From a virus: 32,150 bases of DNA. The translations under genes were made by a program, and so were the position numbers. Location of the stretch: UHGV virus genome UHGV-0070112; one strand, written 5' to 3'. Position 1 is the stretch's first letter; each line of letters begins with the position of its first letter. The notes under the pieces are model-generated. The model searched no databases. It was not told where the DNA came from and saw only the letters and a program-made list of their open reading frames with translations. Of this stretch, positions 4,252 through 14,199 are shown one piece after another.

Positions 4252-4881
4252 TCACACCAGTACTGATTTAGCCTGATTAAACAGCGCTCGGCGTTTATCC
4301 AGACCGTTGCGGCCACCGTTAATAAGCAGTGTTACGCGCTCAACATCACCGGAATGAAGCAGGCAACCGTGGGAGACATAAAACCATGCGGCCGAACGTG
4401 CAGCGTAATCATCTCGCTCCAGCAGCTCAGGCTGGGTAACAAGGTCAAGTTTCAGCGCCTGTCCGCAGCTGCGATAGTTGCTCAAGCCCGTAACTTGTTT
4501 CAGGCCGCGACCGCGATATTTCCAGCCATCACCAGCAACCTGATTACCGAGATTCTTTTTGCCCCACTCGCCCCCATACACCAGATTAGCGATTGCTCGC
4601 TGATTCGCTGGTTGTGTTGCCGTTCTGCCGAGTGCGGCGGCCTGCTGGGCGGTGATACGGTGTTTGCCGAACGTAGGAACAAGTCTGTCGGCGGCGTAGT
4701 TCAGGCTTTCCACCAACGTTGTATAACCACCGGATTCATGCCCCATCTGCGCGATGAACATCGCCTGATCGAGTGGAGCTGTGATACCGAATTCTTTCAT
4801 CGCAGCATCAATGTGCGGAAACCAGCGCGCAGCTAACCCGGCGCTGATACCAGCCGCCCGTTGAAATTGTGATTGGTTCAT
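4252..4881 (-). CDS. Endolysin, GH19 chitinase-like lysozyme
   Basis: 209 aa; motifs FIAQMGHESGG and NLVYGGEWGKKNLGN typical of GH19-type phage lysozymes. Sits between holin-like and spanin genes. Confidence 0.8.
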   Translation of the reverse strand: MNQSQFQRAAGISAGLAARWFPHIDAAMKEFGITAPLDQAMFIAQMGHESGGYTTLVESLNYAADRLVPTFGKHRITAQQAAALGRTATQPANQRAIANLVYGGEWGKKNLGNQVAGDGWKYRGRGLKQVTGLSNYRSCGQALKLDLVTQPELLERDDYAARSAAWFYVSHGCLLHSGDVERVTLLINGGRNGLDKRRALFNQAKSVLV

Positions 4882-5162
4882 CAGTGCCTCAGTGCATCAA
4901 CAAGCCGTGCTACATTGCCTCTTACGCTCAGCAGCACAACAAGGATCATGATATTGGCCCCGATGGTGGGCCATGTTGAATAGGGATAGATGCCGCACAG
5001 ATACGCCAGCGGCACAGAGCTGTATAACACTGTTATCAGCCATGCCAGCCGGGAGACCCACTTACGATGCCGTGAATCTCGACGGCGATAGAACATCAGA
5101 GTAACCACGATACCAGCGCATAACAGCGCATTGATTGTTGCTGTCGGATCATTTAGTACCAC
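4881..5162 (-). CDS. Lysis-cassette membrane protein (holin/antiholin-like)
   Basis: 93 aa with about three hydrophobic helices; immediately upstream of the endolysin. Confidence 0.5.
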   Translation of the reverse strand: MVLNDPTATINALLCAGIVVTLMFYRRRDSRHRKWVSRLAWLITVLYSSVPLAYLCGIYPYSTWPTIGANIMILVVLLSVRGNVARLVDALRH

Positions 5163-5535
5163 CGGAACCTCCCCGGCGCGTTATTAGCGCCACCAGCGAG
5201 CCAATATCCTGATTGTTCAGGAAGGTGAGTATTTTCACGGCCAATGCCGAAATGATTACGGCACCAATAGCATCCAGCGGTTTATCGCTGTATCCGGTAA
5301 GGGCTGATAGCTTGGAGCCTACTAACCCGGCGCACAGAACACCGGCGATATAGGACACCACGAAATAAGCCATACGCCGTGTTGCGCTCAAATCGGCAGC
5401 GGTCGCTATATAAAATACAGAACCAGCAAATGCCCCGAACACAACACCGTAATCAGTACCGGTTAACAGCCCGTAAACACTCGCACCCGTTAAAGCGCCG
5501 CCAGCTAAGCCTGTGCCGGTTATTGGTTCGGACAT
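5149..5535 (-). CDS. Putative holin
   Basis: 128 aa, Gly/Ala-rich with multiple TM segments; first gene of the lysis block. Confidence 0.55.
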   Translation of the reverse strand: MSEPITGTGLAGGALTGASVYGLLTGTDYGVVFGAFAGSVFYIATAADLSATRRMAYFVVSYIAGVLCAGLVGSKLSALTGYSDKPLDAIGAVIISALAVKILTFLNNQDIGSLVALITRRGGSGGTK

Positions 5536-6656: not shown

Positions 6657-7242
6657 CGCGCGGCCGCGACGTTAGAACCATGGGTATTTTAACTACATAA
6701 GGTTATGAAGATCTTCGGAAAAAATGAGATGATGGTTTGTTTGGTTATTTAATGAGCGAAAACAGCCAAAATCCCCATGCAGGGATGATAAAAAACGTCA
6801 TTGTGTAGACGACTGCAGGCTGTAATTTATTCAAATTAAATTTCCTTAGTAGGGCTCTATGTGTCCTACAACATCCAACCTACCTAAAGACATTGATTGA
6901 TACAAGAGGAAAAACACTACTTTTTTATCAAATTGGGATCGGTTTTGTTTCCGATGGCGCGGCATTATACGGAGATAACCCAAGTTATCAACAGAAATTG
7001 CCAGCATATGTACGCAAAATGTGCTGTTTCTAATTTTGAGATGGTTGTGGTGCCGGGTGCCTCCCGGTGAGCATGCCCCAACAGACATTACTCGCGCGGT
7101 ATTCACAGGGCTTTCGCTCTATTAGTTGGACGCCCCTCCGCATAGGGGGATTCACCACACGGATAATTTAGGATGTAGTCATAGGCGGCGTCAATAACTG
7201 ACACTCTGTCAAAGGCACCATTACGATGCCTTTTGCACAGTG

Positions 7243-7398
7243 CTAATCACTGGATCTAATAAGGGGCCAGAGCAAAGCGATTACCCCAGCTACCAGCACG
7301 CCATCAGCCAGGATTGACATCATTTTGCTGGTGAAGTCGATAGCAACCACCAGAAACAAAAGCACCCCGGCTGCGGCCCAGCGAAGTTTACCGATCAC
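7243..7398 (-). CDS. Hypothetical 51-aa two-TM peptide, coupled to TerB-like gene
   Basis: Manual translation (M)IGKLRWAAAGVLLFLVVAIDFTSKMMSILADGVLVAGVIALLWPLIRSSD. GTG start overlaps the TerB stop (GTGA). Below the track length cut-off. Confidence 0.35.
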   Translation of the reverse strand: MIGKLRWAAAGVLLFLVVAIDFTSKMMSILADGVLVAGVIALLWPLIRSSD

Positions 7399-7820
7399 AG
7401 GTACTGGTCCAGAGGAAGTTGCAGAGCTTGGGCAATTTTCTTCAGCTGTTTCTCTTCTTCTTCCCCGATACCGTCATTATCTGCTACATCAAGACACAGG
7501 CAAAGAACATCGACAGCGTCATCCGTCCCGGCAACATCAGCCAGTTCGCGCAACGCCTGAGCGTTGGCTGAACGCGGCGATGCTTCGTAACGAGCGCGAA
7601 TATTCGAACTCATCTGGGCAATTTCACCAGCAAATGGCGCGAATGCCGGCAGGGCCGAAATAGTCTTCTCCAGCACTGCAATCTCTTTTGCATCGCAGGT
7701 ACCATCGGCGTATGCAATCGAGTACGCTCCCCAGACCGTGGCTTCTACAGCATCGCGGTTTTCCATTTTTTTCACTTCAACAACGGCTTTACGGGCTTTC
7801 TTTTTAAAAATACCAAACAT
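7395..7820 (-). CDS. TerB-like domain protein
   Basis: 141 aa with acidic helical TerB-like core (CLCLDVADNDGIGEEEEKQLKKIAQALQL). AAGGA RBS upstream. Confidence 0.55.
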   Translation of the reverse strand: MFGIFKKKARKAVVEVKKMENRDAVEATVWGAYSIAYADGTCDAKEIAVLEKTISALPAFAPFAGEIAQMSSNIRARYEASPRSANAQALRELADVAGTDDAVDVLCLCLDVADNDGIGEEEEKQLKKIAQALQLPLDQYL

Positions 7821-7952
7821 AGTGACTTTCCTTTTAGCGGGTGAGCCAGCGCTCAGGAATGATCAGCCCACAGAGACAGTCACACTGACTATTCCCTATG
7901 GCTCACCCCTGAAAGGCTCTGTGGTTATATAACGCCGAGCGTGGCGCAGATA

Positions 7953-7977
7953 CGAAAAAGGCCCGCAAATGCGAGCC
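7953..7977 (-). terminator. Intrinsic terminator between late-leader region and TerB-like gene
   Basis: Minus-strand hairpin GGCUCGC-AUUU-GCGGGCC followed by UUUUU. Confidence 0.5.
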
Positions 7978-8373
7978 TGGTTGATCCGCTTACTGATACG
8001 GAGCGACCAACCTAAGTTGTCGCAGATTCAAATTGTGGCCCTGCCTTTAAGTCACTTTGCGCGCAGCTGGGACATGTAGTTTTCGCATCGTGATCGGGAT
8101 TCGCTTCAGGCGCTGGCCCCGCAGCCATATAAGTGCCGGTTACGGTTCCGGCCAGGCCTCTTCCTCAACGGGTTATTCTCCATACGGATTTCCGTTTGTT
8201 GGTCGTTCCTGCGATCTCAATTTTCCGGTTACGTTTATCCGGTGGCTTACGCCCGGTTTAGCCCTAAGGTAAGGGATTTGGTTGTGGTGGCAGGCGCCCA
8301 TCTCCTGCTTAACGTCAATCAACGCTTGCACATCGCTACGTTATGGGCCGGGATCAACCGATATTTTCGCTCG

Positions 8374-8476
8374 CCACAACGGAAAGAGCACTGGTAATCT
8401 GTAGCGGGTATTTACTCGCGCACGCCGTTTTGACGTGCGGCCCATTTCAGCATGGTCAATGATCTTACCTGTTGTG
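8374..8476 (-). other. Paired-motif element, late-leader copy
   Basis: Minus strand reads CACAACAGGTAAGATCATTG ... ~80 nt ... CCAGTGCTCTTTCCGTTGTGG; the two arms are imperfect reverse complements. A second copy is at 23361-23475 on the plus strand. No credible ORF in 7978-8538. Confidence 0.3.
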
Positions 8477-8538
8477 CGCTCCGTTTCGTGGAGCAGACGC
8501 CGCCGGAATCGCACCGGCAGAATCATCACATTGGTATA

Positions 8539-8570
8539 TGGTGCTGGTTGACGGAATCGAACCGCCGTAG
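8539..8570 (-). tRNA. tRNA 3' segment (T-arm, acceptor 3' strand, CCA)
   Basis: Minus strand ctac-GGCGG-TTCGATT-CCGTC-AACCAGC-A-CCA. Acceptor 3' strand AACCAGC is the exact complement of the 5' strand GCTGGTT at 9037-9043. Begins 1 nt after the HNH stop codon. Confidence 0.45.
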
Positions 8571-8990
8571 CTATTTCGTTATTTCCAATAAACCTGCGTG
8601 GACTTTTCTGTGGCAATTAGCACAGAGGACAATACACTTCCTCACTTCATCTTTAAGTCGATTTCGTGATCTGCCACATAGATTGGAAGGGTCGCCTTCT
8701 TTGCTGCCGGCGTTGTCATGATGAAGATCCAGAACAACAGGTTCTTTTTCTCCGCAATTTTGGCATCCTATGAAGCGTTTATATCGAGCTAGAAACTGAC
8801 GGTTTGAACTTGTTTTTCTCGTTCTCGTTGACTTTATTAGCTGTCGCCTTGACTCATTGGTTGCATAACTCAAAGCATCTCTTTCCTTAGCGCACGCCTT
8901 ACAGATATTTTGTAGGCCATCGCTCTTTCCTTTGTTTTTATGGAAATCGGAAGCAGATTTTAACTCTTTGCATTTGCTACAAATTTTCAT
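8571..8990 (-). CDS. HNH endonuclease with N-terminal Cys-rich motif
   Basis: 139 aa; N-terminal CSKCKELK...CKAC and C-terminal HNH motif (LDLHHDN...CANCHRKVH). AT-rich by eye. AGGA RBS. Lies between the two halves of the tRNA-like gene. Confidence 0.8.
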   Translation of the reverse strand: MKICSKCKELKSASDFHKNKGKSDGLQNICKACAKERDALSYATNESRRQLIKSTRTRKTSSNRQFLARYKRFIGCQNCGEKEPVVLDLHHDNAGSKEGDPSNLCGRSRNRLKDEVRKCIVLCANCHRKVHAGLLEITK

Positions 8991-9005
8991 CAGTATCCTA
9001 GGTCA

Positions 9006-9043
9006 TTACAAGGCAGGCGCTCTACCAGCTGAGCTAAACCAGC
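9006..9043 (-). tRNA. tRNA-Thr(UGU)-like 5' half (acceptor, D-arm, anticodon stem 5' strand and loop)
   Basis: Minus strand GCTGGTT-TA-GCTC-AGCTGGTA-GAGC-G-CCTGC-CTTGTAA with U33 and anticodon UGU. The expected 3' anticodon-stem strand GCAGG is absent; the sequence runs into the HNH RBS. Overlaps the last codons of the N6 methyltransferase. Confidence 0.45.
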
Positions 9044-10083
9044 AAATTGCGCATTTCACTGACCGTCTGTTCAAATCTCTCGGTTTCCAGTTCGACACCT
9101 AGTCCCCTTCGCCCGAGAAGAGCAGCCTGCTTGAGCGTTGAGCCTGATCCAAAAAAGAAATCAGCTACAACATCACCCGGGCGGCTACTCGCTGTGATTA
9201 TCTGCTCCAGCATATCCGCAGGCTTTTCACATGGGTGTTTACCTGGATAAAACTGAACAGGCTTATGAGTCCAGACGTCGGTATATGGCACCGTGACCGA
9301 TACGCTGAATGGTCGCCGTAAACGGTAATATTCCTGCTGGAGTTCAGAATATTTTCGGCTTAACGATTGCCAGGTAGCGACAAGCTGGTGGTGAGGTTTT
9401 CCCAGTTCGTTGCGTGAGTGCTTATCCATGGCGATTTTTTGAAACAAAGCCTGCAACTTTAAATAATCGGCTTCGTTCGGTAGCTGCCACTGACTAAGGC
9501 CAAACCAGTGGGAAACCATATTTTTCTTACCTGTGGCTTCTGCAATCTGAGCGGACGTCACGCCAAGAGATTCCCGTGCATCACGGAAGTAAGAAATTAA
9601 AGGCGTCATGACGTGTTGCTTTAACTCATTACACTTTGCGGCATATCCATCGTCTTTGGGCCTGTATGGCCCCTGATAATGGTCGGCAAAAATGATACGT
9701 TCCGTCGCCGGGAAATATGACCGGAGGCTTTCTTTATTGCATCCGTTCCAGCGTCCCGAAGGTTTAGCCCAGATGATATGGTTGAGCAGGTTAAACCGCT
9801 CTCTCACCAACAGCTCAATATCCGCTGCCAGGCGGTGCCCACAGAACAGATACATGCTGCCGGCAGGTTTTAACACTCGCCAGAACTGTGCCAGACAGCT
9901 ATCCAGCCAACGTAAATAGTCCTCGTCCCCCTTCCATTGGTTATCCCAGCCGTTTGGCTTCACCTTAAAGTAAGGCGGATCGGTAACAATAAGATCAATG
10001 GAGTTATCGGGTAGCGATGGGAGGTATTGCAGGCAATCAGCATTGATTAATTCAATACTGGATGTTTTTACAGTATTTTTCAT
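9034..10083 (-). CDS. DNA N6-adenine methyltransferase, beta class
   Basis: 349 aa; motif IV IVTDPPYF near the N-terminus and motif I FFFGSGSTL near the C-terminus, the beta-class order. No adjacent restriction endonuclease other than the small HNH ORF downstream. Confidence 0.8.
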   Translation of the reverse strand: MKNTVKTSSIELINADCLQYLPSLPDNSIDLIVTDPPYFKVKPNGWDNQWKGDEDYLRWLDSCLAQFWRVLKPAGSMYLFCGHRLAADIELLVRERFNLLNHIIWAKPSGRWNGCNKESLRSYFPATERIIFADHYQGPYRPKDDGYAAKCNELKQHVMTPLISYFRDARESLGVTSAQIAEATGKKNMVSHWFGLSQWQLPNEADYLKLQALFQKIAMDKHSRNELGKPHHQLVATWQSLSRKYSELQQEYYRLRRPFSVSVTVPYTDVWTHKPVQFYPGKHPCEKPADMLEQIITASSRPGDVVADFFFGSGSTLKQAALLGRRGLGVELETERFEQTVSEMRNLLV

Positions 10084-10232
10084 AGATCAGTAAGCGTAAC
10101 TCTGATAGGCTCACTTTGCTTTTGCGCTAAAGCAGTGGGCCGTGGTTAGCTTGTGACCTGAAAGCATGAGCTGATGGCTGGCCGGGTGCTACAACACCCA
10201 CCAGCCGCCCATTTTCACAGCAAAAGCCCCCA

Positions 10233-10424
10233 TTACTGGAGGCGCTTATAACATCCGAACTGATAATCAGATAACCCCGCCATTACCAGCTGCATAAGTA
10301 TGAGCTGGCAGCGTTCGCGGCTCAGGTGAGAACTCTGTGCAATCTCTCCAGCAGTAGCTGGTTTGTCACTTAGCTCATTCAAAACAGCCTTGGCTGTTTC
10401 CGTCATATCTTGCTGATTTAGCAT
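10233..10424 (-). CDS. Small winged-helix-like protein
   Basis: 63-aa ORF with helix-turn-helix-like core (ATAGEIAQSSHLSRERCQLILMQLVMAGL). First gene after the candidate late-operon terminator, upstream of the N6 methyltransferase. Confidence 0.45.
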   Translation of the reverse strand: MLNQQDMTETAKAVLNELSDKPATAGEIAQSSHLSRERCQLILMQLVMAGLSDYQFGCYKRLQ

Positions 10425-10503
10425 GTCTTTTACCTAAAAAAGTGGCGTGACATACAGATAACTCTCGTTACTGAGTACAGCAAGAAACAATCGCGATAAA
10501 CGT

Positions 10504-10524
10504 AAAAAAACCCGCCAGAGCGAG
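10504..10524 (-). terminator. Candidate tR'-like intrinsic terminator
   Basis: Minus strand CUCGC-UCUG-GCGGG followed by seven U. Sits ~120 nt downstream of a promoter-like TTGTCA/TTGTAA region in the 10525-10642 intergenic gap. Confidence 0.35.
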
Positions 10525-10642
10525 TTTTTAATGTTTAAGCTGTGTGTCGAAGTGACCACTCTTAACACGTTACATAACAAAATGCGGACCGCGTTAGTGA
10601 TTTTTTTATTTCCTCACGCTAAGGTAGGTTTACAAGAACGGA

Positions 10643-11527
10643 TTGACAAAAATTGAGGCAACCTTGGAAAGTTCGACCACCTTTAAAATCTTCTACGATG
10701 CTGAAGATGATGAGTTAGCACAGCATAAAATTGACGCGAAAACTTTAAGTCTTTCAATTGGCTCAATGGCAGAATTGATTTCCAAAGCAGATAAAAATCT
10801 TAATGACGGGCAAGAAACAGTCAAATTAATGGTTACAACACCTGCTGCTGAAGGCTCAATTGGTGTTGTTTATTCAATGATGGAGTTAGTCCCTAATGCT
10901 ATAAACGTGGCTAAAGTTATCGGTTTAACGGCAGCAGGAGGGGCTTTTATTGGTGCTCCCGCGCTTTCATTGATCCGGCAGTTAGGGAGTAAAAGAGTTA
11001 TATCGATTACTAAAAGACCCCAGACGCATGAAGCCGTCCTTGAGCTTGAAGATGGGGAAATTGTTTGTAACGATGCTGTTGCAAAATTAGTTACTGATCC
11101 TGAAATACGTCAAGCTCTGGTTAACGTCGTAAGGGCTCCTCTTGATGGTAAAACCAATCCTGTTTTTAAAATCCTTGACCAGGAAGGTAACGAGGTCTTG
11201 CGGCTTGAGAATGAGGAAACAGAAGAGGTAAAACCTTTACCTCGTGGTACACTTCTTGAAAAAGAAGTATCAATCGATGAGGTGAATGTTCGATTCGTCC
11301 AAGTGAACTTTGAAGGAAACAAAGGATGGAGAATTGATTACCTTGGGGATGAACATTCAGTTAGCCTAGATGACAACGTGTTCCTTTCTCAGGTCCAAGC
11401 TGCAACAGTGCAATTCTCCAAAGAAGATCTTTACGTTGTTGATCTAGAAACTATTAAAACGTACACAGCCCGTGGGGTAACGCATCGTTACACCATAAAG
11501 AAGGTTAAGCGTAAGCGCCCAGCGTAA
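10643..11527 (+). CDS. Hypothetical protein A of AT-rich three-gene cassette
   Basis: 294 aa, no recognisable catalytic motif. TTG start (first in-frame ATG is 40 codons in); AGGTAGG upstream. Visibly AT-rich. Convergent with Q. Confidence 0.45.
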   Translation: MTKIEATLESSTTFKIFYDAEDDELAQHKIDAKTLSLSIGSMAELISKADKNLNDGQETVKLMVTTPAAEGSIGVVYSMMELVPNAINVAKVIGLTAAGGAFIGAPALSLIRQLGSKRVISITKRPQTHEAVLELEDGEIVCNDAVAKLVTDPEIRQALVNVVRAPLDGKTNPVFKILDQEGNEVLRLENEETEEVKPLPRGTLLEKEVSIDEVNVRFVQVNFEGNKGWRIDYLGDEHSVSLDDNVFLSQVQAATVQFSKEDLYVVDLETIKTYTARGVTHRYTIKKVKRKRPA

Positions 11528-11533
11528 GTAGGA

Positions 11534-11800
11534 GTGATGGTAAACCAGCAACTTTTTGAACTAGCGATGTGGGTAGGGGTGATAATGGCTTCCCCCCTGC
11601 TTTTTCGTTTTTCATATGCTGCATCTGCCTTGTTATGGCGGAGGGTTTTCCCTACTCGTAAATTTGAGTTTTCGTATAAGGATGAAAATTCTCAAACCAT
11701 ACGCTCTGTAACAATCCTTATCCCAAGAAATAGAAGCAAAACCCTTGTTCAGTTGATAGATGAAGCCCGAAAGAACGGGGACAGAAACAGTGGCAAATGA
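11534..11800 (+). CDS. Hypothetical small membrane protein B of cassette
   Basis: 88 aa with one N-terminal TM helix (LFELAMWVGVIMASPLLF). Starts 7 nt after the gene A stop with AGGAG just upstream. Confidence 0.4.
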   Translation: MMVNQQLFELAMWVGVIMASPLLFRFSYAASALLWRRVFPTRKFEFSYKDENSQTIRSVTILIPRNRSKTLVQLIDEARKNGDRNSGK

Positions 11801-12206
11801 TAAGAAAACCACCAGTCCAGTGTCATCGACACTTTCAACTGGGGGCATAGGCATAATTCTATCTGGTTTGGTTACCTATTTTGTGCCAGAAACCAAGTCT
11901 GGACTAGCTAAGCTATTGTATTTATTCATCCCTTTTGTTTCAGCTATTTTGACCTACCTTATGGCTTGGGTTATAGCCCGGCATGGACTTGAATCTCCTG
12001 AAGATGCAGCCAAACGGGCAAACTTCTTGAGAGATTTAGCCACAATTGATGTTGAACTTGCTAATGATAACAACTCTGAAGAATTCAAGGAAAAGTTAAG
12101 AAAATCAAGAGAGAAAACTGTAGAGATGATGATTAACATTGGAAAGGAAAGCACTTTTACTTTCTTTGATAAAAGTAATGAACAATCAGCAAAGGGCAGC
12201 GATTAA
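11760..12206 (+). CDS. Hypothetical membrane protein C of cassette
   Basis: 148 aa with two TM helices (GGIGIILSGLVTYFV, LLYLFIPFVSAILTYLMAWVI) then a charged helical tail. Overlaps gene B by 41 nt in another frame; start may be GTG at 11790. Confidence 0.4.
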   Translation: MKPERTGTETVANDKKTTSPVSSTLSTGGIGIILSGLVTYFVPETKSGLAKLLYLFIPFVSAILTYLMAWVIARHGLESPEDAAKRANFLRDLATIDVELANDNNSEEFKEKLRKSREKTVEMMINIGKESTFTFFDKSNEQSAKGSD

Positions 12207-12221
12207 CTGCCCTCTTATAAC

Positions 12222-12587
12222 TTAACAATCTAGATCAAGACGGATGTCTAACATTGATAGACATCCGTCAATAAAACCTTCAGCCATCTGTATCTCGATC
12301 CGGATCAACTTCTCATCTTTCTTTTGCGCCTTAGCTATTTTACGTTTCGAGATACCGTACAGGTAATGAGCCACGAGCAAACTGTGCTCGTATGGCTTCT
12401 TTTCTCGAAGCCTTGCCAAACAGCCTTCTATGATCAGCGCATCATCATCAGTACAGCACAAGCGCGTTTTTCCGCCCTGCGGAAGAAGCCCCTTAAAACC
12501 TGCTGCAATGTGGGAATAATCAATACCGGAGCTGTCAGCTGCCGCCCAGCCTCCCCATAAATCTAAAACCTTTTGCATGTCACGCAT
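12222..12587 (-). CDS. Phage antitermination protein Q (QuuD-like)
   Basis: 121 aa; motifs LDLWGGWAA, FKGLL, CCTDDDALIIEGCLARL match the small Q-family antiterminators of lambdoid prophages as I recall them. Confidence 0.7.
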   Translation of the reverse strand: MRDMQKVLDLWGGWAAADSSGIDYSHIAAGFKGLLPQGGKTRLCCTDDDALIIEGCLARLREKKPYEHSLLVAHYLYGISKRKIAKAQKKDEKLIRIEIQMAEGFIDGCLSMLDIRLDLDC

Positions 12588-12604
12588 TCATATTCTCCAT
12601 ACAC

Positions 12605-13660
12605 TTATGCTTTTACAATGACGCCGATACCCATTACCCGATCCAGAAAACGAGCCCACAGCTCTAACTGAGTGCCATATTTCTTTTCGAACTCTGATGT
12701 ATTGGCGTGTAATTCATCGTGATGCACTCTGCACAGTGGTATCACGAAGAGATCATGGGCCTTGGTGCCAGTTCCCCCCAGACCATTCCCTATTATATGG
12801 TGTGGATCGTCTGATGGTTGCCTACAGCATTCACATGGCTGAGTTTTAACCCAACGTGTGTAAACTTCGCAGGTCCAGCGCCGGCGCTTTGGGCGGCGCA
12901 TAAATGATTCGGGGCTGTTCGGATCGACACTAAGCCTCAGAATGGGTTTACTTTCACTCTGAGTTTGCTCAATGAGTACACTGGCTTCCGCCAGGTCTAT
13001 GCCCTCGACAAGATCCTGAAGGATTTCACCTGCAGCAAATGACGGGACAATATCGCTATCCTTATAAACGGACAGGAAAGGTTCCTCAGGCAGTCTTAAG
13101 GCCTGTTGCGCCATCGTCTCGGTTATTGCGTCAGCAATGCCGGATTTCACAGCCCACCAGCAGAGCTCCGCCATCGATAATTCGCGCTCCTTATTGTATC
13201 CAAGGCTGATCTGCACCCTTTCAATCACCCACTGAACCAGATTCTGATAAGCCAGCTCTGACAACATTTCGGTGGCCTGCTCACGTAATTCATTATCACA
13301 ATGCCAGCAGACAACCATGGCGCCAGGCGGATGCCGCATAGTCACTAATTCATGGTGGTGATAGTGGGAATGCGGGTACTGGCACTCTCTGACATGTCGT
13401 AGAAGCCAGGCCTCAAGAGCGTTTATTCCACCAGCTGCGTTAATAACCCTCTCATCCCTCATGAAAAAACGCAGAATGTCCATTTCGGCAAGCGGCTGAC
13501 GTGCATCGGCGATCCGCCCAGTAGGCAGTGTTTTCATTTTCTCTGGCTGACGCTCTATCAGGACACGGCCGCCGGTAAAGAGAGACATCAATTCGCGGCC
13601 TGGTTTGAAAAGAACAACGCCCAGGCGCGGCACAATTTCCGGAGTAAGCAATGCTCGCAC
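12605..13660 (-). CDS. Phage protein with C-terminal HNH-like Cys/His motif (DUF968-like)
   Basis: 351 aa; C-terminal CECCRQPSDDPHHIIGNGLGGTGTKAHDLFVIPLCRVHHDELH. Family name is from recollection. Confidence 0.5.
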   Translation of the reverse strand: MRALLTPEIVPRLGVVLFKPGRELMSLFTGGRVLIERQPEKMKTLPTGRIADARQPLAEMDILRFFMRDERVINAAGGINALEAWLLRHVRECQYPHSHYHHHELVTMRHPPGAMVVCWHCDNELREQATEMLSELAYQNLVQWVIERVQISLGYNKERELSMAELCWWAVKSGIADAITETMAQQALRLPEEPFLSVYKDSDIVPSFAAGEILQDLVEGIDLAEASVLIEQTQSESKPILRLSVDPNSPESFMRRPKRRRWTCEVYTRWVKTQPCECCRQPSDDPHHIIGNGLGGTGTKAHDLFVIPLCRVHHDELHANTSEFEKKYGTQLELWARFLDRVMGIGVIVKA

Positions 13661-13668
13661 AATCCCCC

Positions 13669-14199
13669 CTAAACAGTCAGATCTTTAAGCTTCTGCACGG
13701 CTTTACCAACTTCAGCCATAGCATCTACGAACTCGTCAAACTTCCTGCTGGCCATTCCATATGCCTGGAGAATTTCCAACTTCAAGGGATCGAGCTGTTT
13801 CTTAATTTCTGCACGATCCCCTGCTTTTTTCTCCGCTTCCTCTGCCGCTTTGATCAAGGCGTCGGCCTGTTTACGTAATGCTTCCGGAGTTACTTCGAGC
13901 TGTTTATTCATTTTGCATTCCATCGTCGGCTGAGGAGGTGTCATTACAGGCGCCACAGATTTGTGACCATATTTCGGGTGGTGCAAGGTAGTAGACCTTC
14001 CATCATCTATCACGCAGAGCATCCCGCTTTCCCGGATTATTTCGATCAGGGTCTCTTTGTCTTTGCGATTGAGCCCACTGTATGCCGCCACTTTGTGCGT
14101 CAGGTGGGTTAGCGTTGCGCCTTCTGGTTGCCTCTCTACAAAACGCTTTACCCTGGAAAGCACTGGTTGCAGGTGTGGGGGAGTCATTCTCATGTTCAC
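13669..14199 (-). CDS. Hypothetical protein
   Basis: 176-aa ORF in the nin-like block; helical, Lys/Glu-rich C-terminal half. Confidence 0.45.
   Translation of the reverse strand: MNMRMTPPHLQPVLSRVKRFVERQPEGATLTHLTHKVAAYSGLNRKDKETLIEIIRESGMLCVIDDGRSTTLHHPKYGHKSVAPVMTPPQPTMECKMNKQLEVTPEALRKQADALIKAAEEAEKKAGDRAEIKKQLDPLKLEILQAYGMASRKFDEFVDAMAEVGKAVQKLKDLTV

Follow-up and report, generated by a model that had tools for sequence, protein, structure and literature searches.

In the canonical Q cassette, the Q gene is followed by the late promoter pR', a sigma-dependent pause element and a terminator (bioRxiv 10.1101/651190). Cargo hotspots of another kind were described in P2 and P4 prophages, where conserved flanks enclose many alternative low-GC cassettes, several of them of known defence families (Rousset et al. 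2022, PMC9122126). Further defence candidates are collected in the PDC set of PADLOC, 145 candidates lacking activity tests, with a homologue embedded in a BREX, DISARM, Hma or type I restriction-modification (R-M) locus (“guilt-by-embedding”). This work concerns a three-gene cassette, A-B-C, of the virus genome UHGV-0070112 (a stretch of 32,150 nucleotides, the whole of which is called the window), located at 10607-12221 between the gene for the antiterminator Q and the late leader. That this segment is a mobile and probably autonomous three-gene cargo unit (a “moron”), inserted at a hotspot of largely defence or defence-candidate genes, is well supported. The hotspot resembles those of P2 and P4 in its flanks and cargo, and differs from them in phage type and in position, since it lies between the gene for an antiterminator of the Q21 family and the late promoter belonging to that gene. 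The features of the locus are the following:

10500 to 10529, - strand: intrinsic terminator of the late leader, candidate tR', with the stem ACTCGC/GCGGGT followed by T7 (terminator scan and sequence).
10530 to 10606, - strand: late-leader block, candidate pR', Q-binding and pause region, containing AATCACTAACGCGGTCCGCATTTTGTTATGTAACGTGTTAAGAGTGGTCACTTCGACACACAGCTTAA and near-invariant across loci whatever their cargo.
10607 to 10663, + strand: cargo-specific region upstream of A, with a weak sigma-70-like candidate promoter and the ribosome-binding site (RBS) GAGG at 10654-10657 (sequence).
10664 to 11527, + strand: gene A, PDC-S42/LAPAL family, probably 287 aa (294 aa from an upstream TTG), from its open reading frame (ORF), hidden Markov model (HMM) matches and structure model.
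11534 to 11800, + strand: gene B, 87-88 aa, with an N-terminal transmembrane (TM) helix and a predicted basic cytoplasmic tail (ORF, topology, conservation beside A).
11790 to 12206, + strand: gene C, more likely 138 aa (148 aa from ATG 11760), with two predicted TM helices (ORF and topology; SLATT_4 match below threshold).
12191 to 12215, no strand assigned: GC-rich hairpin GGGCAG-N7-CTGCCC over the C stop codon, candidate bidirectional terminator or insulator (terminator scan, folding).
12222 to 12587, - strand: Q antiterminator, Q21/933W family, flank of the cargo slot (PF06530, E 1.7e-50).

The ~75 bp block on the - strand (10530-10606) contains GCGGTCCGC, then TGTAACGTGTTAAGAGTGGTCAC, then CACACAGCTTAA, and the terminator comes next (10529-10500). 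Block and terminator stand directly after the Q stop codon in the Stx2a phage Stx2_95 (Q 67% identical, empty slot) and also in VT2-Sakai, and a terminator was found at the same place after the conserved block in all relatives, these two phages included. The region 10500-10606 was read as the late leader because the same sequence directly follows Q in Stx2_95 and VT2-Sakai and because of the layout of the canonical Q cassette. In the window, the leader lies 1.6 kb from the Q stop codon, with the cassette in between. An earlier note on this DNA had proposed that the cassette splits Q from the late promoter and terminator, and the direct succession of Q and leader in Stx2_95 and VT2-Sakai bears this out; the promoter-like and terminator-like elements that the note placed at 10504-10642 are real and conserved at 10500-10606. 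The same note let the cassette begin at 10425, but the left part of that interval (10425-10606) belongs to the late leader. The -35, -10, Q-binding and pause elements were sought in the leader block by eye only, and the block is labelled as a candidate. An Rfam search of 7000-13000 gave nothing at the locus except a sub-threshold istR-like match on the leader, and no tRNAs were found in the interval from Q to the lysis genes.

Among loci with different cargo, homology stopped right after GCGGACCGCGTTAGTGATTTTT (GTTAGTGATTTTT), at window position 10606, and the cassette is therefore a ~1.6 kb insertion (10607-12221) between the Q stop codon and the leader. These boundaries came from the comparison with related prophages lacking the cassette that had been suggested as a check (Kp4866-6, Stx2_95 and the different cargo types). 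The Klebsiella phage Kp4866-6 matched the window at 9039-10486 (96%) and 12595-14000 (98%), and between these flanks it carried a different, 282-aa Q and no cassette, so that the exchangeable unit in this comparison comprised Q, the cassette and ~120 bp. On the leader side, similarity to Kp4866-6 begins again at 10486, immediately past the terminator. The exchange (4389-5374 of its locus L001 vs. 10487-12594 of the window) was a clean mosaic swap of the whole Q-plus-leader module, Kp4866-6 having its own leader. The segment was thus present, absent or replaced in close phages, with sharp boundaries, and its base composition was unlike that of the backbone: the GC content was 0.411 in 10607-12221 vs. 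0.504 in the window, the lowest among windows of the same size (z = -3.5).

The unit is inserted in reverse orientation and comprises an upstream region of its own, a terminal hairpin and, between them, three translationally packed genes. The candidate promoter upstream of A has a -35 GTGATT at 10597-10602, inside the conserved block, and a -10 TAAGGT at 10620-10625; its match to the consensus is weak, TAAATT takes the place of this -10 in most A-B-C relatives, and a generic promoter scan did not call it. At the other end, a stable hairpin, of unrelated sequence, was present in the gap between C and Q in 18/18 A-B-C loci and in the 3 loci with other cargo that were folded.

A, B and C were confirmed as real, conserved genes. 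Their order, sizes and overlaps recurred in more than 100 loci, from Klebsiella, Citrobacter, Enterobacter, E. coli, Cronobacter, Pantoea, Edwardsiella, Pseudomonas and Methylomonas hosts, and the pairwise nonsynonymous divergence (dN) of the three genes was 0.1-0.6, far under the synonymous divergence (dS), which was saturated; dN/dS was 0.10-0.36 for gene B, which is often unannotated in databases and usually skipped by PGAP. The ORF of gene A covers 10643-11527 on the + strand (294 aa from TTG), and the true start is probably TTG 10664 (287 aa), which is favoured because database gene calls and the RBS agree; from this codon, the protein was 100% identical to a database protein of Klebsiella michiganensis (P0001). 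The ORF of gene B encodes 88 aa (11534-11800, + strand). For gene C, the ORF covers 11760-12206 on the + strand (148 aa from ATG 11760), and GTG 11790 (138 aa, RBS GGGGA), the start in database gene calls, is more likely. C and Q are convergent, with 15 bp (12207-12221) between their stop codons, and Q (121 aa) matched PF06530 over its full length, a family known by the Q21/933W naming (bioRxiv 10.1101/651190). The three + strand reading frames, with their sizes and packing, their AT-richness relative to the backbone and their convergence with Q at 15 bp had all been described correctly from the start, as shown by the ORF list, the window-wide GC minimum and the coordinates.

The slot between Q and the leader was surveyed in the 80 closest Q relatives in IMG/VR (73-94% identity), fetched regardless of A. 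Slot length, defined as the distance from the Q stop codon to the leader motif, was measurable in 64/80 loci; the slot was filled in 63 of these 64 (0.86-2.8 kb) and empty in one (49 bp). The GC content was 0.32-0.44 in the slot vs. 0.48-0.58 in the flanks, and the cargo was almost always convergent with Q. At least 14 cargo types were distinguished, about half of them without a recognisable family. The A-B-C trio (PDC-S42) occupied the slot in 7-8 loci of the survey, a DUF6731 protein (PF20505) with a 4-TM protein, as in phages cdtI and vB_EcoS-733R5, in 18, and a KAP NTPase related to PifA and QatA (PDC-S20, 4e-160) in 7. For further cargo types, the single representatives that were searched matched a second KAP-like protein (PDC-S49, 4e-132), a TIR-TM protein (3.5e-58), an HNH nuclease like CBASS effectors (PDC-M68A, 7.5e-27), an SMEK_N protein (PF21941), a putAbiC protein (PF16872), an NYN domain protein (PF01936) and a ClpP-like SDH protease (PF01972). 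Several other one- to three-gene cassettes belonged to no recognisable family. Among the cassettes lacking a PADLOC or Pfam match, some were recurrent (loci L116, L145, L159 and L177; L119, L123 and L171; L144 and L147; L132): a 355-372 aa protein with a 170-aa membrane protein, a 336-aa protein, a 262-aa protein and a three-gene set. These are untapped candidates from the same hotspot. The DUF6731 protein in the same slot of phage cdtI was considered as a homologue of A and rejected (probability 0.1% in profile comparison), the two being different cargo.

The slot of this Q subfamily thus has conserved flanks, variable cargo and recognised defence families, as expected of a prophage defence hotspot; no description of a hotspot between Q and the late promoter was found in the searchable literature. 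The A-B-C cassette was kept with the same boundaries in many prophages carrying this Q subtype, and is therefore a cargo allele that is stable and widely shared, rather than a unique insertion. That it is cargo and not core, as the earlier note proposed, is well supported, since phages with the same flanks or with a close Q lack the cassette or have other genes there. One IMG/VR prophage (L082, 1337-6484) had the KAP NTPase (PDC-S20) in the Q slot and a distant A-B-C ~3 kb further on, co-oriented with Q, so that two cargo types coexist in one genome.

A was matched by the PADLOC model PDC-S42 (PDLC05015, E 6e-31, residues 10-294), by the NCBIfam model NF053583 (204 bits vs. a cut-off of 60, 2.9e-60), which bears the title “LAPAL motif-containing putative phage structural protein”, and by phrog_3243 (E 2e-61), and is a full-length member of the PDC-S42/NF053583 family, with HMM scores above the curated cut-off. 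The statement that no motif in the cassette supports any family was thus overturned by these HMM searches. B and C had no PADLOC model match at E <= 1, and literature searches on PDC-S42, the LAPAL motif, DUF6731 and the accessions gave nothing relevant. The NCBIfam title would make A a virion structural protein, a reading that is very improbable: the gene lay outside every structural module and opposite to the late operon, was always accompanied by two membrane proteins, was present on plasmids and non-phage islands and had no tblastn match in 50,697 sequenced phage genomes (the same was true of a distant A used as a second query), and the fold matches of its model were to OB folds (named after oligonucleotide/oligosaccharide binding) and not to capsid or tail folds. 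No support was found for the “structural” label.

A profile search of 1.84 billion representative sequences with A gave 1,229 clusters (50% identity) at E <= 1e-3, nearly all of them of 285-310 aa and matched end to end. The trio was intact in 54/54 IMG/VR loci found via A. It was kept in every locus with A of at least 32% identity. All loci with A of at least 54% identity were convergent with this Q type; in a clade with A of 32-35% identity, the trio was situated between Rz and the small terminase gene and co-oriented with its neighbours. Further away, the trio was kept in 5 of the 6 distant contexts sampled; there A was accompanied by a 1-TM protein of 84-87 aa and a 2-TM protein of 124-139 aa, and B stayed beside A down to ~20% A identity. 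Distant members were found in Methylomonas, where the trio lay between HicAB and PIN/Phd modules, in a metagenomic contig, and in P. aeruginosa, where it adjoined an IS6-family transposase among type I R-M genes, with several copies per genome, and was also carried on megaplasmids of 370-460 kb. The Pseudomonas variant (loci L095-L099; plasmid hits H126-H140) was found at no fewer than 3 places in one assembly, beside qacE/sul1 integron remnants, and the ~400-kb megaplasmids carrying it came from P. aeruginosa, P. putida and P. fulva. In E. coli, A-B-C was present in 43 of 5,426 complete genomes. The exception among the six distant contexts was an edge member of the family, in which A was accompanied by a nucleoside 2-deoxyribosyltransferase-like gene instead of B and C, next to genes for a CI-like repressor and a RelA/SpoT-domain protein. 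The pairing of A with a soluble enzyme suggests that B and C are an exchangeable effector (constant A, swapped partner); this single case of A with a different neighbour was the sole hint of it.

The proximity of A-B-C to toxin-antitoxin (TA) modules, insertion sequence (IS) elements, an integron remnant and megaplasmids, together with the potential toxicity of small membrane proteins, would also fit a selfish addiction module, TA-like or serving host fitness, in which a membrane toxin (C/B) is checked by A and no specific anti-phage role exists. This is improbable given that the prophage hotspot is shared with recognisable defence families, that the family has PDC candidate status and that the alleles diverge fast beside a conserved Q: in K. 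pneumoniae prophages, Q was 90% identical while A was 57% and B and C 42% identical, A, B and C diverging together and much faster than the adjacent Q. An anti-phage role of A-B-C is instead probable from its context: the company in the hotspot, the embedding among R-M genes and TA modules, the carriage by prophages, IS elements and megaplasmids, and the rapid allelic divergence. The complete reading, a cargo module at the Q-to-leader hotspot that would act as a lysogen-expressed anti-phage system, A being the sensor and B/C the effector in the membrane, is somewhat favoured.

The protein features on which this division of roles would depend were as follows. The AlphaFold model of A (predicted local distance difference test, pLDDT, 81.7; predicted template modelling score, pTM, 0.67) had three parts: an N-terminal unit of strands and a long helix, a hydrophobic segment rich in Gly/Ala and modelled with low confidence (residues ~80-108, the “LAPAL” region), and two successive beta1-beta2-beta3-alpha-beta4-beta5 units (~110-185 and 197-285), which may be two OB-like beta-barrels. 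Foldseek gave nothing significant for this model in the PDB (E 0.04-0.1), with the tandem OB domains of HIN-200 near the top; a BFVD structure search with A returned uncharacterised viral proteins only, and a profile search of PDB sequences with A and C gave no relatives. A, described earlier as soluble, has one borderline hydrophobic Gly/Ala-rich segment (residues 86-104). Topology prediction agreed with the one TM helix of B and the two of C that had been noted earlier. B has one N-terminal hydrophobic helix and then a basic tail; C has a Gly-rich TM1, a strongly hydrophobic TM2, an invariant RHGLESP motif after TM2 and a helical tail, and was predicted by the positive-inside rule to have both ends in the cytoplasm (N-in/C-in). 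The structure model of C (pLDDT 62) was too low for a structure search. A SLATT assignment of C was considered and rejected: SLATT_4 (NF033632) scored 17.5 bits vs. a cut-off of 55, in only 3/15 homologues, and there was no Pfam SLATT match.

The two TM helices and charged cytoplasmic tail of C also recall the layout of class II holins, and B and C might be holin- or antiholin-like proteins, regulated by A so as to adjust when the carrier phage lyses its host. A faint Phage_holin_9 match in 1/15 C homologues, the fact that both prophage positions of the trio (Q-holin and Rz-terS) flank the lysis cassette, and the co-orientation with the late genes in the Rz-terS clade are consistent with such a lysis accessory. 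Nevertheless, in the window and in all close relatives the trio is directed away from pR', with the hairpin between it and Q, and is therefore outside the late transcript; the prophage has its own holins (Phage_holin_3_7 and Phage_holin_8 genes) and endolysin; the trio also occurs outside prophages (Pseudomonas megaplasmids, IS elements and R-M genes, the Methylomonas TA island); and the other tenants of the slot are nucleases, TIR proteins and NTPases, not lysis genes. The C protein of the window matched no holin family and does not occupy a late-controlled lysis position. A role in lysis is accordingly a poor candidate, with little probability.

Small prophage-encoded inner-membrane proteins commonly block DNA entry (P22 SieA, T4 Imm, HK97 gp15). 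A-B-C might likewise exclude superinfecting phages at the envelope: B and C, located in the inner membrane, would together with A block the entry of incoming phage DNA without cell killing. This would fit the hotspot context, the orientation, which is of the lysogen type, and the topology predicted for B and C. It is nonetheless unlikely: a large conserved cytoplasmic protein with what the model suggests are nucleic-acid-binding-type folds would be unexpected for a simple entry block, and in one member of the family the partner of A is a soluble enzyme and not B and C.

For the favoured anti-phage reading, the following course of events may be proposed. A-B-C would be expressed in the lysogen; A, cytoplasmic and with two OB-like barrels, would sense an infection cue, possibly phage nucleic acid or nucleoprotein; and B (1 TM) and C (2 TM) would form the effector at the membrane, destroying membrane integrity or stopping the infection (abortive infection or exclusion). 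These roles and this trigger, a nucleic-acid or nucleoprotein cue sensed via the OB-like barrels of A and a membrane effector made of B and C, are speculative and hold a minority of the probability. On induction, delayed-early read-through of Q might also run antisense into the cassette and silence A-B-C, a speculative step. In phi80, the expression of the defence gene taiEcA fell when Q was expressed, and its authors suggest an influence of the late-operon transcript (PMC11364771). In its fullest form, A-B-C would be a new type of abortive infection, in which a tandem-OB (HIN-like) sensor of phage DNA or nucleoprotein gates a two-component membrane pore, in an undescribed lambdoid Q-pR' hotspot, and is silenced on induction by early read-through; this combination is rather unlikely.

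Several other features were observed in the window and in related prophages. The late region of the prophage contained a full-length match to Rfam RF02076, the small RNA STnc100, at 7010-7189 on the - strand (E 9.7e-14; 69.3 bits vs. a gathering score of 47). Compared with Kp4866-6, the window had a second insert of low GC content (0.41) at 8298-9038, downstream of a DNA methylase; its gene at 8571-8990 (- strand) encoded a Cys-rich protein of 139 aa, for which HNH was matched only faintly (E 0.061), and may be a homing-endonuclease-like or other cargo gene. The first gene after the late leader (10233-10424, - strand) encoded a 63-aa winged-helix protein (phrog_331), whose relatives in RefSeq are named “TrmB family regulator” or “DprA-like winged helix” and which was kept after the leader in Stx2_95 and cdtI. 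Related prophages (L003 177-470, L005, L006, L011, L012, L014, L015 and L023) encoded an Acb2/Tad1-hairpin protein (PF24729), a family of anti-CBASS/anti-Thoeris sponges, just past the lysis genes, and thus both defence-type and counter-defence-type cargo were carried.

If the trio were confirmed as a defence system, an entry now held as a single-gene “candidate” or “putative structural protein” would become a three-gene system without homology to characterised mechanisms, with a large spread (the 1,229 clusters, in Enterobacterales prophages and multidrug-resistant Pseudomonas megaplasmids). Since prophages of this kind occur commonly in Klebsiella, an influence of the cassette on the host range of phages used in therapy is possible. 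Independently of the function of the trio, the gap between Q and pR' in the Q21 subfamily is a dense cargo hotspot, a discovery resource like the P2 and P4 hotspots. The locus also shows that the separation of Q from its target promoter by 1-3 kb of foreign DNA is tolerated. This is relevant to the way in which Q locates pR' and to the means by which prophages exclude defence genes from their own lytic programme.

With respect to the databases, A is a full-length member of a family (PDC-S42/NF053583/phrog_3243) whose catalogue entries describe a single-gene candidate or a putative structural protein, whereas here and in nearly all the contexts sampled it was part of a three-gene unit, whose B (1 TM) and C (2 TM) partners are modelled in no database. 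With respect to cargo sites, the locus shares with Stx phages the general Q-to-lysis interval of lambdoid phages, the Q family and the leader sequence. The earlier note equated the slot with the site of the Shiga toxin genes, but the two differ: stx is downstream of pR'-tR', co-oriented and Q-dependent, whereas the A-B-C slot precedes pR', and its cargo mostly converges on Q and is set off by a hairpin, a candidate insulator.

The general shape of RexAB had also been recognised in the cassette. The likeness stands as an analogy, in that both are prophage-borne and combine a soluble protein of ~280-290 aa with a small polytopic membrane partner, with a proposed sensor-plus-membrane-effector logic, and the general shape (soluble protein, small membrane partners) agrees with the context of A-B-C; homology was rejected (hhalign probability 0.3% for A vs. 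RexA and 0.2% for C vs. RexB, and no RexA/B Pfam match). A-B-C has three genes and RexAB two, RexB has four TM helices, A has putative OB-like barrels, and RexAB lies next to cI in lambda while A-B-C lies beside Q. The two predicted TM helices of C, followed by a predicted helical cytoplasmic tail in a low-confidence model, may resemble the 2-TM effectors of biological conflict systems (SLATT; the 2TM effectors of CBASS/Pycsar). The combination of a 1-TM, a 2-TM and a soluble protein recalls the Rst_2TM_1TM_TIR composition that Rousset and colleagues are said to have reported in 2022, with the difference that A is not a TIR protein. Finally, A may resemble the tandem OB nucleic-acid binders of the HIN-200/RPA type, at the level of the modelled fold only and with no sequence similarity.

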